Positions 1 through 48,000 of a stretch of DNA of 64,000 nt are shown piece by piece. The DNA is from Desulfobacterales bacterium. Its GTDB lineage: Bacteria; Desulfobacterota; Desulfobacteria; Desulfobacterales; UBA2174. The DNA lies in contig CAXXWC010000018.1 in the NCBI GenBank assembly GCA_963668645.2, forward strand, positions 192,001-256,000, given 5' to 3'. Made by a program: the position numbers. Numbering within the stretch: the stretch's first letter is position 1; each line of letters opens with the position of its first letter.

Positions 1-3000
1 CCGATCACCAGCATCAGGACCGGATAGGTCATCGCATTGCGGATGCGGGCCCGCACGGCCTGCTGTTTCTCGGTGACGTCGGCCAGCCGTTCGAGAACGA
101 TTTCCAGGGTTCCCGATGCTTCGCCGGAACGTACCATGTTGACATAGACCGGTGGGAAGGTGTCGCCGGCGCGGCCCAGGGCGTCTGCGAAGCTGCTGCC
201 GCCCACCACGGCGTCCTTAATCTGAGTGAGCTTTTTTTGCAGCCCGGCCGACGGGGTCTGGGGGATCAGCGCGTCCAGGGCCTGCACCAGGGGAAAACCC
301 GCCCCCAGCAGGGTGGCGAGCTGGCGTGTGACCAGGGAGACCTCCGCCGGCTTGACCCGATTGCCCATCAGGCGCTGGCGTATTGCCCCCTGCTCCGGAC
401 CCGCGGCAGCGGCGGTGACCTCCTTGAGGCTTACCGGATAGATCCCCCCGGCGCGCAGCCGACTGCGCGCCCCGGCCAGCCCGTCGGCGTCCAGAACCCC
501 GCTGACCTTCCTGCCTCGTCGATCAAGAGCGCTGTATTCGAATACCGACATGCGTGCCTGCCAAGTCTGTCATGGGTTGAAAAATTGTCCTGAACAGCAA
601 AGAGATGCCGTCCTGTTGAAGATGAATTTTTACTCCGGCTTGGCGCAGCGGGTCAAGTCGGATGTGGAAAATCTATGGACCGCGCATGACGAGGCATTTT
701 CCCTTGACATCAATGGCGCACTTTTATAATACAGACTTAAAAAATTTGTTCAGGCGCTCATAATGGAGCTTAATAGGGAACCCCGTGAAAATCGGGGACG
801 GGCCCGCCGCTGTAATCGGGGACGAAAGCCGTAGCATGCCACTGACCTTGGGTCGGGAAGGCACGGCCGGTAGGACGATCCGTCAGTCAGAAGACCTGCC
901 TGGGCATATGGTCACCACCGCGCGGACGGCGTGGCGGCCACGATTTATCTGTGGATAAAAAAGGGAAATCCCGGATCGCAAAAGATCCGGGATTTCCTTT
1001 TTTTTGTGGGCCCTGCCGGCCCGGATTCCGGGTCAACGAAACGGTCAATACATCGGGCTTTGGGTTTTCAACCATCGGCATCGTTCGAGAACGAAGAAAG
1101 GCGCTGATGCGATACGCTAAAAGCGGGCTCAATACTGTCCTGTTAAAAGGTGTTCAATATGAAATAACTATCTAAAGATACTTAAAGGCGATGGACTTTT
1201 TTGCCCATACGTCAGTTCCGCCGGTGCGCTGCTCGGTATCCTGGAAGCTACCGGGTTTGCTCTTTTACATGCCACGACCAGTACCTGTGTATGGCTTTTG
1301 CCCAGCTGATCTAGCGGTACTACGATGACCGGCAACAACGGGCACTGGTTTTTTGACCAACAACTTTTACCCACCTGCCTTGACCATAGCGGATTTTGCC
1401 GCTGGCGATGGCAGGTGAAACTCTTTTTCAATTCGAAAAAGTGACTCTTTTTCAGCTACTTGATGTTGCCGGCGACAACAAAGCAGATAGGGTGCCTTGT
1501 CTCCAATTGAAATTATGCGATTCTTGAACGGACACTGCTGAAAAAATGCTTGTAATGATTGCCATTTGCGATAGATGGCTATCCTCTTCTTCTTCTTTGT
1601 CAAATCGTCCATGCCAGTCCGGCCGGGATGACCGCCGAAGCGCTTGGCAAAAAGCTGCGCTGCCGTTGTCATTCGGTTCTGGTCGGGTTGTACCGTCGCG
1701 GTCTTGTCCAACGCCAGCACCAGGGACGCGCGAACGTTTACCTGGCCAGCAATGCCAGGACCGACGAGGCGCAACGTCGTGTCCTGGCAGCGCCCGTGAC
1801 GGCGGTGCTGCCAGCCGAGATCGCGGTGATGGTGCTGGCCGGATTCATCCGCCAACCATCGGCCGGGCCAGCCGAGCTGGCCCGCCGGGTGTCGGCCAGG
1901 GCCACCGTGCGTATCGAGGCCGAACAGATCCGGGCGCTGTTCGCGCATCACGGTTTAAAAAAACTGTTGCCGTTGCGGCCATCGGCCTCCTGAGTCGCCT
2001 CAGCGAACAACTGCAACAGGAGGTGCGCCCGTCGGTACTGTCCCCGCAGCCACCGGCGGTCGATTTCGAGGCCTGCCACAGTGTCGGGCAGATTCGCAAT
2101 GAGCCGCTGGCCCGCGATGTGGTGCTGTCCGATTCTCAAATCACCAAACTCGGCCGCAAGTTTATCCTCTTGCTGGCCCATCGCCGCGCCATCCCGCGCA
2201 TCAATCAGGCGATGGTCAGAAGCGGCAGCTATATCCTCCATCTGGATGCCGTGCACCAAGAAGATGTGCCCGCCCTGATGTCAGACAACGACGGTCTGAG
2301 CGGCCTGGTGTTGTCCAACGTCAAGGTCCCCAGTGAACACGCCGCGTTGGTAAAAAATTTTTCCAACCCCGACTACATGAAAACCCTGCTCGACGGTCGG
2401 CCCAATATCGAAGCCGTGTTTGCTGATTTGAATTGGGCTGCGGCTTCCGAGGATCTGACAACGGCTACGGAAGCCGAATGTGTTCTGCCTGGTTTTAAAG
2501 CACTGACAAAAATGCCGGATCTACCCGTTCGAATCTCAGAACGCGCTTCTGCGGCTTTATCCAGGGTAAAATCCAACCAAATTGTGTGGTTATGGAAGAT
2601 AACGTTACAGCTTTTTTGTCAAAGGAGGAAAAACATGCAGGCTGATCCACGCAACAGGTTTTTGAATTTTGCAGGCGCCGTACTGCTGGCCGTGCCTTTG
2701 GTCGCTATCGGCCTGGCCGCCGGACCGTCTATGGCCGACGCGGCCGGAATTACGGTCCAAGAGGGCGGAAGCATTCAGGCGGCCATTGACGCGGCCACGT
2801 CCGGGGACACGGTAACCGTGGAAAGCGGCACCTATGCCGGGGGCCTTACAATAGCTGAAAAATCACTGATCCTGCTCGGGGTGGACACGGGCGCCGGAAA
2901 GCCGGTAATCGACGGCGAGGGCGGCTCGGAACCGGTTGTTTCGCTGCAAAACAGCAGCGGCTGTACCGTCGAAGGGTTTGCGATCCAGAATTCGGGTTCT

Positions 3001-45000: not shown

Positions 45001-48000
45001 GGAAAGCAGGATTTGAAAAGGACGACGGTGTTCTCGCCTCCCGGATCGGCAGCCAGACGGGGCCAGGCGCCGAAGTCGCCCGTGTTCTGTCCGGTTTCAC
45101 CGTAAAGGGCCGCTAAGACGGCAGCGCTGTTCTGGCCGGTGAACCATTCCGGCCAGTTGGGGATGTCGGTGCGGTCACCGATTCCGTTCGGTCCCCAGCC
45201 GTAATTGGTGGCGCTGACATAATAGTTATTGGCCATCAGGGCCGCTCCCAGATCGCCGTAAGGCTGGTCTTCATTGGGTGCCGCCAGCCAGTTGCCACCG
45301 GTGGAGTGGTGGATGAAGACCAGTTTGACTGGCGAGGTCGCAGGGGTGGTGCCGGCGCTCAAAGAGGGCGATGGGGTTAGAAGGAGCACCGGCAGCAGGG
45401 CTAAAATCAGCGACACCTTGGCGCGCAGACGGTCCATCGGCGGTCCCCTTTCTGTTATGGAATCGGCGGCTTCTTAATTTTTTTCTTTTCGGATTTAAAT
45501 TTTGTATCGACCTCTGACCCGAGTGTCAACAGCCGGCAAGGCCCGTTGTGACCGTTGCATATTGCACCATCGGTTTGAATATGCATGCTTGTAAAGGGTT
45601 GATACACGGCCCCGTCAACGTTTTGTGATGGCTTTATCAAGATGGATTCCTTTCTGTTTGGGGGGGGCACCTGTGTGCCTAACTGCAGATCCCTCGTCGT
45701 TTCTCGGGATGACACGGAAGGGGATGGGCCTGCTCGGGATGACGCGGGATGGGTCCTGAGCATTAATAGCGAATCGGTATTACAGCACCCGGGGCCATTT
45801 CCTGGCCCCGTGCAGTACGCGCAGGATATGAACCTCTTTGTCTATGCATCGGTACGGTACGATAAACGGGGTGTCGGCGACGACCAGTTCGCGGGTCCCG
45901 GGAATACGACCGGGACGGCCCATGGCGGGCTGCTCTGCCAGGCATTGGACGGCCTGCCAGATTTTGGCGGCTATTGAAATGGCGCTTTCCGGCCGATCCC
46001 TGGCGATGAAGGCCATCAGCTCGTCCAGATCGGCCAGGGCCAGGTGGAGCCACCTAATCTTGTTCACCGGAAACGCCCCATTTGGTAAAAACGGATATGA
46101 CTTGAGCATCCGAAGCGAAACGGCCGGCATCGGCCTCCTGGATGCCCTGTTCGATGGCCTCGATCTGCCAGGTATGCGCATCCACAAAGGCACGGATGGC
46201 TTCGGCCACAAGGAAGGATTTCGACCGGACAGTGGCTTTGGCCAGTTGCCCGAGTTTGGCATTGGTTTCCGCATCGAGGCGGGCGGTTACCGTGGTGGTG
46301 TGCATGGTGAACTCCAGGGGATGTTTGGATGTGAAGAATTTGTGTACAAATTATTAACACGTGTTTGCTGCCCAGGCAAGGAGCGCAATACGTGATCATT
46401 ATTTGTGGCAGCCAGCCATGGACGTAATTTATTCAATTTTTCTATGGACAACGGCGGATATCTCCTCGTTGACGCTCGCCGCAATGACAGAAAGGAAGAT
46501 ATAGATGCAACTCGAATCTCTGATTCAAGCGGCCCGGGGAAAGATCCCCTGCGATCTGCTGCTGACCGGTGCCAGAATCATCAATGTCTTCAACGGCCGA
46601 ATTTTTTCCGGCAGCATCGCCGTTCACGGCGGGGCCATCGCGGCCCTGGACGCGCGGCCGGCCCGCAAGGTGGTGGACCTGGAAGGCCGCTGGGTGGCTC
46701 CGGGTTTTATCGACGCCCATGTGCACCTCGAAAGCGCCATGACCGTGCCGGTCCAGTTCGCCCGGGCCGTGCTGCCCCGGGGCACGACCACGGTGGTGGC
46801 CGATCCCCATGAGATCGCCAACGTCCTGGGAACCGCGGGGATCGACTATATCCTGGCCGCCAGTGATGGGCTGCCCCTGCAATGTTTTTTTGCTCTGTCG
46901 TCCTGCGTGCCGGCCACCGGCCTGGAGACCGCCGGTGCGCGGCTCGGGCCCGCCGAGCTGGCACCGTACTGGTCCCATCCGCGCATCGCGGCCCTGGCCG
47001 AGATGATGGATTTTCCCGGAGTCCTGGCGGCCGACGGGGAGGTGCTGGCCAAGATCGCGGCCGCCGAGTCGCGCGGCAAACCGGTGGACGGGCACGCTCC
47101 GGGTCTTGGCGGGCCGGGGCTAGCGGCTTACGTGGCGGCCGGGATCGGCAGCGACCACGAGTGCACCCGGGCCGACGAAGCCCGTGAAAAGCTGGCCGCC
47201 GGGATGCGCATCATGATCCGCGAGGGGACCGGGGCCAAGAACCTCGACGACCTGCTGCCCATCGTGAGCGATGTCAACTGGCACCGGATCATGTGGTGCA
47301 CGGACGACCGCCATCCCCACGACCTGATCACCGAAGGGCACATCGACGCCATGGTGCGCCGGGCCGTGGCCGCGGGCCAGGATCCGGTGCGTGCCATTCA
47401 GATGGCGACCCTCACGGCGGCCGAGTATTTTGGCCTGCGCCGCTGTGGGGCACTGGCTCCAGGCCGCCGGGCCGACCTGGTGGTGATAGACGATCTGGAC
47501 ACGATCCGCATCGATTCGGTCTGGGCCGGAGGGCGGCAGGTATCGGCCGGAAATGAGATGATCCTGGCCGATGGGCAAACGGCCGGCCCGGCAGCCCCCA
47601 CAGTCATGCGTCTGGACCCTGCCGCCCTGGGCCTGGCCGTGCCGGCGGCCGGAGAACAAATTCGGGTCATCGAGCTGGTGCCCGGCCAGATCCTCACCGG
47701 TAACGGCCGGGCCAGGGCGTGCATCCGGGCAGGCCTTGCCACGGCCGATCCGGCCCGGGATCTGCTCAAACTGATAGTTGTGGATCGTTACAGCGGCCGC
47801 GGGCGGACAGGGATCGGGTTCGTGCGCGGCTTCGGTATGGATCGGGGCGCCCTGGCTTCCAGCGTGGCCCACGATTCACACAATATCATCGCCGTGGGGG
47901 GCGACGATGCTGACTTGAAGGCCGCGGTGGCTGGTGTGGTCGAAATGGGCGGCGGATTGACCGCTGCGGCCGGCGGCCGGATCCGGGCAAAACTTCCCCT

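Follow-up and report, generated by a model that had tools for sequence, protein, structure and literature searches.

The window analysed here is a 64,000-nt stretch of contig C18 of a Desulfobacterales genome. On its plus strand, a co-directional gene array (2635-27207) is headed by a cobalamin riboswitch and encodes cohesin-bearing giant proteins, three propeller-dockerin proteins, a TonB-dependent receptor, and the secretion components GspN and GspC. Terminator-like sites within the array are not in excess over shuffled sequences. The aptamer (735-917, plus strand) matches the RF00174 covariance model over its full length (1-189) with 125.4 bits and an E-value of 4.4e-31. A promoter-like site read from the sequence (TTGACA, 15-nt spacer, TATAAT; 704-730, plus strand) ends 5 nt ahead of it and lies outside the range of our promoter scan, which was limited to 16-18-nt spacers. 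An intrinsic terminator, a G+C-rich 14-bp stem followed by a T-run (964-1004, plus strand), forms the expression platform and is common to three paralogous riboswitches (in the window, at C18:393k, and at C21:146k).

The distance from terminator to gene 1 is 1630 nt. The leader or spacer (1005-1542), gene-free as far as protein-level comparison within the genome can recognise, has no protein-level match there except for a 111-nt repeat on C15, and shows no conservation with the spacers of two related loci, L053 and L070. It is followed by 1047 nt of IS debris (1543-2589, plus strand), a decayed copy of a 2598-nt element with three internal deletions, which aligns in four blocks of 88-91% identity and shares about 90% identity with the 11 full copies, themselves identical to one another. 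Because this debris separates the switch from gene 1, control of the 25-kb array by read-through from the riboswitch at 735 is unproven, and the IS element or another promoter might now drive the array genes. The genome-wide survey's note had reported both the strong riboswitch with its terminator and about 1.1 kb of IS debris, with the same reservation about read-through, and the present data agree. Since the 6.35-Mb genome holds 15 riboswitches above the gathering score, chance placement ahead of a given array is unlikely (about 0.2% by arithmetic, for a switch on the correct strand and at most 2 kb upstream).

Cohesin, dockerin and secretion genes

The first array gene encodes a giant secreted protein of 1701 aa with a signal peptide. 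Its open reading frame extends from 1546, and the real start is at 2635 (2635-7740, plus strand). Pfam domains and sequence motifs comprise two NosD-like beta-helices, three CARDB domains, a cohesin, a NEW3-like domain, and a C-terminal duplicated dockerin-like motif. Gene 2 (real start 8367, open reading frame from 8100; 8367-13109, plus strand) encodes a secreted paralogue with a beta-helix, three CARDB domains, and a cohesin by Pfam; genes 1 and 2 are 73-77% identical in their 5' regions. Further plus-strand genes encode a small secreted protein with a single NEW3-like domain and a signal peptide (13222-13635; NPCBM_assoc 24.6 bits), a secreted NEW3-like protein whose dockerin-like C-terminus was read from the sequence and which has no Pfam family below E 0.1 (15128-15766), and a NEW3-like and TIG protein (15883-18066; TIG 1.4e-8). 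The last of these ends in a Gly-run/CFID/TM/basic tail, a putative anchor. Two smaller cohesin proteins have 357 aa (18109-19182, plus strand; Cohesin 25.1 bits) and 201 aa (24776-25381, plus strand; 38.5 bits).

Beyond the array, the minus strand encodes a secreted Ig/fn3 protein of 1642 aa identified by Pfam (27362-32290), at the end of which a six-frame search found a dockerin above the cut-off (Dockerin_1, 23.3 bits), and an LptC-related protein (32342-33151; Pfam LptC 22.6 bits). On the plus strand there follow a 674-aa cohesin protein (33984-36008; Cohesin 44.3 bits) whose C-terminus reads as dockerin-like, a small secreted protein (36090-36602) that is paralogous to the N-terminal part of the protein encoded next (33% identity), and a 1617-aa protein with Ig repeats by Pfam (36686-41539). 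This last protein carries the second copy of the putative anchor tail, which occurs only twice genome-wide, in the proteins at 15883-18066 and 36686-41539. A GNAT acetyltransferase assigned by Pfam and two unassigned open reading frames (41640-45437, minus strand) show no evidence of belonging to the system.

Pfam cohesins above the cut-off are thus present in five window proteins (2635-7740, 8367-13109, 18109-19182, 24776-25381, and 33984-36008), as the survey's note had counted. Its further statement that all cohesins of the genome lie in this locus does not hold, as two more matches above the cut-off map to C3:235179-237777, where an open reading frame of 15,496 aa contains one of the two. 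The note's count of two dockerin proteins in the locus has to be replaced by three propeller-dockerins plus the 1642-aa protein.

A type II secretion system (T2SS), gspE-D-M-L-K-pseudopilin-G-F, lies back to back with the array on the minus strand, as previously noted. Of this divergent operon, only the 5' part of its last gene, gspF, reaches into the window (3-551, minus strand; Pfam T2SSF 5.4e-28). The rest of gspF with G, the pseudopilin, K, L, M, and D lies upstream of the window in region L030, and gspE at C18:182100-183254. Within the array, also in line with the note, GspN (25305-26315, plus strand; TIGR04411, 131 bits, cut-off 50) is followed by a delta-type GspC with a PDZ domain (26320-27207, plus strand; Pfam T2SSC; NF041515, GspC_delta, 175 bits, cut-off 150).

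Propellers, receptor and a second riboswitch operon

Three plus-strand genes encode propeller-dockerin proteins. The first (13731-15140; PQQ_2 7e-35) has a complete two-repeat dockerin at its C-terminus by eye; its Dockerin_1 score of 25.4 bits (cut-off 22.9) comes from the whole protein with the first repeat alone aligned, and falls to 19.1 bits in the six-frame search. The second (19334-20809) scores 3.9e-21 for PQQ_2 and 33 bits for Dockerin_1. The third (20865-22268) has a Sec signal at its N-terminus, no lipobox, and, according to Pfam and an AF2 model (pLDDT 82.8), an eight-bladed propeller of the BamB/YxaL/Rv3035 type with structural matches at Z 36-40. BtuG is absent among the top 50 structural and top 60 profile matches. 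The earlier description of an eight-bladed propeller with a dockerin, BamB-like rather than BtuG-like, is therefore borne out, and so is its rarity: the combination occurs in two of 401 genomes of the order, this one included, and in none of four genomes of the same genus.

The receptor gene directly follows (22265-24415, plus strand). Its 4-nt overlap with propeller 3 is an artefact of taking the longest open reading frame; signal peptides starting at M32 or M46 place the likely start at 22358 or 22400 and leave a gap of 90-131 nt. The note's assignment of a BtuB-like receptor is upheld by comparison with PDB, NCBIfam, and a tree. E. coli BtuB is the best solved relative (E 3e-44), and the best NCBIfam model is TonB-B12 with 256.7 bits, compared with 266.4 bits for a riboswitch-controlled paralogue in the same genome. 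In a quick tree of the 19 TonB receptors of the genome, the two proteins are sisters (SH-aLRT 99). In 400 further genomes of the phylum, a cobalamin riboswitch stands directly ahead of 13 of the 15 closest homologues, as a tandem pair in three of these cases. The receptor is a member of a riboswitch-controlled BtuB clade.

The paralogous riboswitch on C21 (125.3 bits) is 83.9% identical to that of the window over 186 nt, matching the earlier report. An AraC/cNMP regulator gene lies directly behind it, and the operon also encodes a protein of 604 aa that combines a dockerin with a cohesin assigned as probable by hhalign (83%, E 8.8e-6). Outside the window, no other gene of the genome encodes a dockerin protein; this one is a probable cohesin-plus-dockerin adaptor.

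The propeller family in corrinoid loci

Propeller relatives of 40-61% identity were found in ANME-2/Methanosarcinales, Dehalococcoidia, Peptococcaceae, and deltaproteobacteria, with ANME-2 and Argoarchaeum proteins (40-46%) among the closest. In Pfam-annotated loci of Methanolobus and Methanococcoides, the propeller belongs to CbiZ-BtuFCD-DUF4430-propeller arrays, and in Dehalococcoidia and Peptococcaceae a cohesin protein and a propeller-dockerin accompany DUF4430, a toroid protein, and an ECF transporter. Of 79 non-redundant propeller loci, 47 are 10 kb or longer; corrinoid-linked genes lie beside the propeller in 36 of these and are absent from 11. The 36 include 18 with BtuF/BtuC/ECF/TBDT/CbiZ/CobQ, 24 with Pfam-verified DUF4430, and 15 with a CobN-like giant, where the transporter and CobN tallies are raw counts from local BLAST against Pfam-annotated references. 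In five genomes, 12 of 15 above-cut-off DUF4430 matches fall inside a propeller locus. Fusions join the propeller to DUF4430 and a dockerin (L042, L043, L048), to DUF4430 and CobN (L135), or to NosD, CARDB, PKD, and DUF4430 (L111). Co-location and fusion tie the family to corrinoid uptake genes across phyla.

This recurrence bears on the view that the locus is an adhesion or biofilm system without a vitamin role, the riboswitch and BtuB paralogue being chance neighbours. With 15 riboswitches and 19 TonB receptors, both elements are common in this genome, the propeller fold is generic, and, as the survey's note had stated, Pfam and NCBIfam searches recognise no corrinoid-binding fold in any window protein. 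However, the association is repeated across phyla and domains of life, the receptor falls within a clade of riboswitch-controlled receptors, and the one dockerin protein outside the window is likewise under a riboswitch, from the same subfamily as that of the window, which makes chance neighbourhood quite improbable. A ligand other than finished corrinoids, whether a different tetrapyrrole or a metal chelate (haem, a corrin precursor, or a complex of nickel or cobalt), would fit the CobN/Mg-chelatase-like giants that 15 of the 47 loci carry in fusion with the propeller or next to it, the scores of BtuF-like binding proteins against haem and siderophore families, and the structural relative Rv3035, whose structure was determined together with FecB, an iron-uptake protein (PDB 9p3f, by title). 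We regard this as very improbable, as cobalamin riboswitches, CbiZ, CobQ, and the transcobalamin-type DUF4430 all favour corrinoids.

A scan for riboswitches in 19 distinct loci of bacterial type (20 scans) found them in only four. In two of these the switch lies downstream of the propellers, as had been cautioned. One is the second propeller-dockerin genome of the order (G044, locus L031), which has the reported order of two propellers, the TonB receptor, and an 81.5-bit riboswitch cut by the contig end. Such a compact unit, together with the 1.6-kb gap and IS debris ahead of gene 1 in the window, is what would be expected if only the propeller-dockerin and BtuB module served corrinoid uptake, the riboswitch at 735 were a relic of a lost gene, and the cohesin/CARDB giants were adhesins or matrix components of a general kind, sharing no more than the locus and offering docking sites. 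Against this, NosD, CARDB, and cohesin modules recur in corrinoid loci elsewhere, with L111 joining several of them to propeller and DUF4430. Cohesin genes also stand straight behind the riboswitch in two loci: in L053, an SLH protein with two cohesins precedes propellers, DUF4430, an ECF transporter, and CobQ, and in L070, a promoter-like site, aptamer, terminator, and about 510 nt precede a propeller, a CARDB-cohesin protein, and a propeller-dockerin. The layout of the L070 leader matches that of the window. On balance, we consider the relic explanation unlikely, yet worth weighing.

A proposed surface apparatus for corrinoid acquisition

The observation itself is confirmed, with the corrections given above, and the note's interpretation of a B12-linked scaffold that captures corrinoids near BtuB is partly supported. 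The receptor belongs to a riboswitch-controlled clade, propellers are co-located with or fused to corrinoid genes, and L053 and L070 contain comparable riboswitch-headed arrays. These comparisons lend strong independent support to a probable role of the locus in corrinoid acquisition and to its link with cobalamin riboswitches, whereas read-through control, T2SS export, corrinoid binding by a particular protein, hand-over to the receptor, and docking onto a partner cell are putative. Our preferred reading, held with moderate confidence, is an outer-surface corrinoid acquisition apparatus built on the BtuB-type TonB receptor. Its proposed parts are the three secreted eight-bladed propellers with dockerin tails, at least five secreted cohesin proteins, and the two proteins whose locus-specific tails may act as membrane anchors. 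The adjacent T2SS, with gspN/gspC in the locus, probably exports the array proteins; cohesin-dockerin pairing would assemble them at the cell surface, and this assembly may capture or concentrate corrinoids and feed the BtuB paralogue. Expression is probably repressed by B12, either by read-through control from the terminator-type riboswitch (735-1004) over a long leader that now contains IS debris, or via the C21 riboswitch, which would control the AraC-type regulator and the probable adaptor. Export route, docking, corrinoid-binding protein, hand-over, and regulation are all steps that we infer. The genome contains no DUF4430 and thus lacks the strongest candidate for a corrinoid binder that related loci offer. 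CbiD and CbiC are present, so scavenging is not obligatory and the organism is probably not an auxotroph.

The propeller is related at the fold level to Rv3035, whose partner FecB is a binding protein of the same class as BtuF. In Rv3035-FecB (PDB 9p3f/9p3g, by entry title), an eight-bladed PQQ-like propeller resembling that of the window (Z 36-38, rmsd 2.6-2.8 over 342-343 residues) partners with a binding protein; that pair has an iron-uptake context and no dockerin, and the kinship is of fold only (16-18% identity). BtuB-BtuG(-BtuH/BtuJ) of Bacteroides is a surface B12 capture system (PMC6143338, PMC10404256, PMC13616437), which likewise combines a BtuB-type TonB receptor with surface-exposed beta-propellers, riboswitch linkage, and accessory surface proteins. 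In contrast, the window propeller is BamB/PQQ-like, eight-bladed, dockerin-tailed, and not lipid-anchored, cohesin-dockerin attachment and T2SS export would apply, and the system is found in a Desulfobacterota species and has relatives among archaea and monoderm bacteria. Like a cellulosome, the locus distributes Pfam cohesin and type I dockerin modules over many secreted proteins, and relatives carry SLH-anchored cohesin proteins (L053). However, the cargo is a propeller and not a glycoside hydrolase, the setting is that of B12 transport and a B12 riboswitch, and each cohesin protein of the window has a single cohesin, so that there is no multi-cohesin scaffoldin here.

The domain repertoire equals that of the 'adhesins' with cohesin, dockerin, and CARDB domains known from ANME archaea and from the sulfate reducers that are their syntrophic partners. 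The portions of these reports consulted propose adhesion or partner sensing, treat cobalamin auxotrophy separately, and make no connection with riboswitches, BtuB, DUF4430, or CobN (PMC9012536, PMC10553843), and our literature search found no paper linking cohesin-dockerin systems with B12. A B12-linked role of such a system suggests that these puzzling 'adhesins' may help cells to gather the vitamin.

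Modules of the array and its flanks

The genes between 2635 and 27207 all lie on the plus strand, and terminator-like sites among them are no commoner than in shuffled sequences. The array opens with two giant paralogues of 1701 and 1580 aa (2635-7740 and 8367-13109), which combine a NosD-type beta-helix, CARDB, and cohesin. These are followed by a small NEW3-like domain protein (13222-13635), propeller-dockerin 1 (13731-15140), two further NEW3-like proteins (15128-15766 and 15883-18066), a cohesin protein (18109-19182), propeller-dockerins 2 and 3 (19334-20809 and 20865-22268), a TonB receptor (22265-24415), a small cohesin protein, GspN, and GspC. 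The gene overlap at the receptor start was examined and is not a true one. Convergent to the array, the minus strand encodes a 1642-aa dockerin protein (27362-32290) and, beyond it, an LptC-like gene (32342-33151). A second plus-strand group (33984-41539) encodes a cohesin protein and a small protein and ends with a 1617-aa Ig-repeat protein, which bears an anchor-like tail. Upstream of the array, a type II secretion system (T2SS) operon is divergently oriented; the genome-wide survey's note had described this arrangement, with gspN and gspC inside the locus, and the core set (gspC, D, E, F, G, K, L, M, and N) is indeed all present.

Cohesin and dockerin modules score above the Pfam cut-offs on separate secreted proteins. 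Five window proteins carry a cohesin, and all three propellers score above the 22.9-bit cut-off of Dockerin_1, so that the earlier count of two propeller-dockerins was too low. Pfam-level dockerins, which the same note limited to three proteins, were also found elsewhere, for example in the 1642-aa minus-strand protein by six-frame search. Its claim that the locus holds all cohesins of the genome was not borne out either, as further cohesin-like matches lie on another contig, within a 15,496-aa open reading frame (C3:235179-238398, minus strand). Cellulosome-type systems have a multi-cohesin scaffoldin, whereas Pfam gave one cohesin for each of the window proteins and no such scaffoldin among them (a relative in L053, a related locus from Peptococcaceae, has two), and the cohesin-dockerin pairing here is a predicted one. 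For two segments that looked cohesin-like by eye (36686-37405 and 36090-36602), this reading found no support, with a probability below 1% in hhalign against a 9-row cohesin alignment. The N-terminus of the 1617-aa protein, modelled with AF2 from a 2-row alignment that included its small paralogue, reached a pLDDT of 38.6, and the model was unusable.

Further modules recur within the locus. An anchor-like tail composed of a glycine run, CFID, a hydrophobic helix, and a basic end is found in only two proteins genome-wide, both encoded here (17900-18066, the C-terminus of the NEW3-like protein at 15883-18066, and 41400-41539). These tails recall sorting signals of the GlyGly-CTERM/PEP-CTERM type; a profile search for exosortase (PF09721) found none in the genome, and the tails are thus without an identified sorting enzyme. 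The NEW3-like domain, of about 90 aa with the motifs ..ALG..LP.GW.. and ..FAW.., is present in five locus proteins (13222-13635, 15128-15500, 15883-16300, and near the C-termini of both giants, 2635-7740 and 8367-13109) and is a candidate ligand-binding or docking module. Both giants end (7560-7740 and 12930-13109) in a duplicated motif, D.NP.DG.I..SELLRV[IV]QIYN, which is not called by Pfam and looks like a divergent dockerin pair. Farther downstream, a class-III aminotransferase appears to be split into two ORFs (60804-61454 and 61517-62362, minus strand) and may be a pseudogene.

The receptor, the propeller, and their corrinoid contexts

The receptor consists of a Pfam Plug and barrel. As the survey's note had it, the protein is BtuB-like: E. 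coli BtuB is its best solved relative (E 3e-44, versus 1e-31 for Cir). The best NCBIfam model is TonB-B12 (TIGR01779) with 256.7 bits, under the equivalog cut-off of 599.7; the canonical riboswitch-controlled BtuB of the genome also stays under this cut-off, with 266.4 bits. In a quick tree of the 19 TonB receptors of the genome, the two proteins are sisters (SH-aLRT 99). Fifteen homologues of the receptor were found in 400 other genomes of the phylum at E <= 1e-90 (36-45% identity). Of the 15, 13 follow immediately behind a cobalamin riboswitch of the same strand, one has the riboswitch downstream, and the remaining one abuts a contig start; three orthologues (L168, L172, and L174) are preceded by a tandem pair. 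The source names borne by homologues of the receptor are vitamin B12 transporter/BtuB, generic TonB receptor, or uninformative, and nothing else. Corrinoid transport by the receptor is a well-supported prediction from these sequence comparisons. Complex prediction for receptor residues 95-716 and residues 45-410 of propeller 3 gave a score of 0.01 against a mark of 0.32, which is evidence neither way. Two complete tandem cobalamin riboswitches on the plus strand (63402-63593, 109 bits; 63689-63882, 106.6 bits) precede the canonical BtuB, and behind this pair (63402-63882) follow BtuB itself, a BtuF-CbiZ fusion, and BtuCD.

The model of propeller 3 (pLDDT 82.8) is an eight-bladed PQQ/BamB-type fold, with Z scores of 36-40 to Cake8, YxaL, BamB, and Rv3035. 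The earlier description of the propeller as BamB-like rather than BtuG-like agrees with this model; BtuG is not among its best 50 structural or best 60 profile matches, a result still compatible with a distant relation. BtuG is a seven-bladed surface lipoprotein, whereas propeller 3 is modelled as eight-bladed and the propellers of the window start with Sec-type signals without a lipobox cysteine (read by eye). Relatives of the propeller with 40-61% identity are absent from the four genomes of its own genus and occur in one of 400 other genomes of the order, in agreement with the survey's note. Relatives in this identity range are found in ANME-2 and other Methanosarcinales, Argoarchaeum, Methanococcoides/Methanolobus, Dehalococcoidia, Peptococcaceae, and two deltaproteobacterial MAGs.

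Propeller loci were annotated with Pfam for ten bacterial-type and nine archaeal cases. The bacterial-type loci contain DUF4430 (seven), cohesin (seven), an ECF transporter or CbiQ component (five), a toroid protein of the prenyltransferase/squalene-cyclase type (four), CobQ (one), and a TonB receptor (one). Among the archaea, a Methanolobus locus reads CbiZ-BtuF-BtuC-BtuD-DUF4430-propeller-propeller with a cohesin gene, DUF4430 recurs in a second Methanolobus, and a Methanococcoides locus has BtuFCD, DUF4430, and propellers; Pfam annotation gave no transporter genes in the ANME-2 and Argoarchaeum loci. Transcobalamins have DUF4430 as their C-terminal domain type (PMC4350170). A control count in five of the propeller-locus genomes gave 15 above-cut-off DUF4430 matches in all, 12 of them inside propeller loci. 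The genome under study, which is 99.35% complete, has no DUF4430 (PF14478) match at E <= 0.01.

The addition of 68 metagenome loci and the collapse of near-identical ones led to 79 groups, 47 of them of at least 10 kb, which are not phylogenetically independent of each other. Labels were assigned by local BLAST against Pfam-annotated references with Pfam checks, and the tallies use our own ORF calls. A BtuF, BtuC, ECF-T, ECF-S, TBDT, CbiZ, CobQ, or CbiM gene is present in 18 of the 47 (a raw count), Pfam-verified DUF4430 in 24, and a CobN-like giant in 15 (likewise a raw count). At least one of these three features was found in 36 loci and none in 11. Fusions join the propeller and DUF4430 to dockerin in ANME-2-type loci (L042, L043, and L048), to CobN (L135), or to SLH (L090), and a single protein of L111 unites NosD, propeller, CARDB, PKD, and DUF4430. 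The tallies and fusions together indicate that each module type of the window locus recurs in corrinoid contexts. The anchor differs with the envelope, being dockerin, SLH, or PGF-CTERM.

The CobN/Mg-chelatase-like proteins of these 15 loci are 1500-1900 aa long and are fused to, or directly follow, propeller and DUF4430 (for example, L135:9009-14837, L121:4989-9587, and L114:14077-18705); an extracellular or envelope role is suggested for these chelatase homologues. A MotA/ExbB-like gene adjoins giant CARDB/propeller or CobN-like genes in L038 (7378-7983), L043 (2131-2790), and 13 more archaeal-type loci (L042, L050, L057, L060, L095, L103, L105, L126, L128, L135, L138, L140, and L148). Since archaea lack both an outer membrane and a TonB system, such genes are unexpected in archaeal-looking loci.

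Riboswitches and possible control by vitamin B12

The strong riboswitch and intrinsic terminator that the survey's note placed at the start of the locus were both recovered. The cobalamin riboswitch (RF00174; 735-917, plus strand) is full length (model 1-189) and scores 125.4 bits in Rfam against a gathering score of 31.5. A perfect TTGACA/TATAAT pair with a 15-nt spacing was read from the sequence at 704-730, five bases before it, and a terminator with a 14-bp hairpin and a T-run (964-1004) directly follows the aptamer. The aptamer-linker-terminator unit is common to two paralogous riboswitches of the genome, both directly before genes: C18:393k, on the same contig, precedes a TonB-receptor operon, and C21:146k, on another contig, is 83.9% identical to the window riboswitch. 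Because the unit is kept in these two gene-preceding paralogues, the window unit (735-1004) is predicted to be a working type of terminator switch and not debris. A special kinship of the window riboswitch to those of the receptor orthologues was also considered and discarded; the similarity is no more than the aptamer core explains.

Gene 1 starts 1630 nt past the terminator, and 1047 nt of this distance are IS debris. The 538 nt between terminator and debris (1005-1542) hold no recognisable gene, and a comparison of the spacer (1005-1545) with the whole genome by tblastx and blastn gave no lost-gene remnant, the sole match being a 111-nt repeat on contig C15. The decayed copy (1543-2589) of a 2598-nt IS has three internal deletions and shares 88-91% identity with the 11 full copies, which are identical to each other. 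The age of the copy, evident from about 90% identity and three deletions, places its insertion before gene 1 earlier than the current IS burst. The first giant gene in fact begins at 2635, 46 nt beyond the copy; it is preceded by a good ribosome-binding site and encodes a signal peptide. The IS itself is active, with its 11 identical full copies in the genome (for example, G000:C18:445987-448584).

A cobalamin riboswitch was found in four of 19 distinct bacterial-type propeller loci (20 Rfam scans). In L053, it heads an array that opens with an SLH protein carrying two cohesins and continues with a propeller-SLH-DUF4430 protein, a double propeller-dockerin, DUF4430, an ECF ATPase and S component, a propeller-dockerin, and CobQ. 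In the related locus L070, a promoter-like site is followed by the aptamer, a terminator of 15 bp, and a spacer of about 510 nt; behind these come genes for a propeller, a CARDB-cohesin protein, and a propeller-dockerin, and then for more propeller/DUF4430/SLH proteins. Without the IS, the window spacer would be about 585 nt, the same layout as in L070; the three spacers (window, L053, and L070) have no sequence in common. In two other loci, L034 and L031 (genome G044), the propellers precede the riboswitch. The spacer between riboswitch and scaffold gene in L053 contains a 64-aa ORF (3153-3347, plus strand) with no counterpart in the window or L070.

The C21 riboswitch directly precedes three genes, in the order that the survey had reported: a cNMP-binding AraC-type regulator, a 659-aa protein of no known family, and a 604-aa protein with Ig repeats and a dockerin above the Pfam cut-off. 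The N-terminal domain of the 604-aa protein aligned with the cohesin profile in hhalign (83%, E 8.8e-6) and has a single close homologue, which likewise ends in a dockerin. A representative search with the protein matched chiefly its Ig repeats and dockerin, and Protein Atlas (best score 0.89) returned leads only. From its sequence, the B12 switch on C21 probably controls directly a cohesin-dockerin adaptor together with a transcription factor. Since a transcription factor would be among its targets, the C18 locus could come under B12 control through this regulator, without read-through across the IS debris.

Proposed working and biological meaning

The proposed working draws on sequence and genomic context. 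At low B12, the riboswitches would fail to terminate, as is usual for the family. The secreted propellers, NEW3-like proteins, and cohesin giants would exit through the adjacent T2SS, a route suggested by the position of gspN and gspC inside the locus and by Sec signals without lipoboxes. Cohesins would pair with dockerins to build an assembly on proteins that the two tailed anchors keep in place. The assembly would then bind corrinoids, or corrinoid-carrying material, and enrich them close to the BtuB paralogue, which would import them. The propeller is the conserved core, and DUF4430, the best candidate for corrinoid binding in the related loci, is absent from the genome. The genome has CbiD and CbiC as well as many riboswitch-controlled uptake and salvage genes, which indicates that the organism probably makes corrinoids and scavenges them too.

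Among understood systems, the BtuB-BtuG-BtuH relay of Bacteroides comes nearest, and the window locus would work by the same principle. Compared with that relay, the window locus has another propeller family, no lipid anchor, and a different assembly, and would not be a member of the family. Papers on ANME and their SRB partners call cohesin/dockerin/CARDB proteins adhesins and treat cobalamin dependency separately. Dockerins on ABC-transporter binding proteins are mentioned by Chadwick et al., which hints at tethered nutrient capture. Text searches, which covered few subscription journals, found no paper linking cohesin-dockerin systems or the PQQ-type propeller to B12.

A wider generalisation is put forward tentatively, as one that we consider possible but somewhat doubtful: the eight-bladed PQQ-like propeller, often joined to DUF4430 or CobN-like giants, may mark corrinoid-capture surface machinery across domains of life, fixed by whichever anchor the envelope permits (cohesin-dockerin, SLH, PGF-CTERM, or a T2SS-exported scaffold). 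Few microbes make corrinoids and most need them. To our knowledge, surface competition for corrinoids outside Bacteroides is known mainly for BtuB alone, and for the cohesin-dockerin proteins found in ANME consortia, in Dehalococcoidia, and in methanogens we know of no purpose assigned so far. If the generalisation is true, many of the cohesin/dockerin/CARDB "adhesins" that lack an explanation in ANME-2 archaea, in the sulfate reducers beside them, in Dehalococcoidia, and in methylotrophic methanogens would serve to scavenge or exchange vitamin B12, and in bacteria a shortage of B12 would switch them on via riboswitches. Tying the cohesin-dockerin proteins to B12 capture would give them a testable function and connect the reported cobalamin dependencies of methane-oxidising consortia to concrete genes. 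It would also bring the PQQ-type propeller, as a new protein family, into the B12 uptake toolkit of organisms important for methane cycling and dechlorination.
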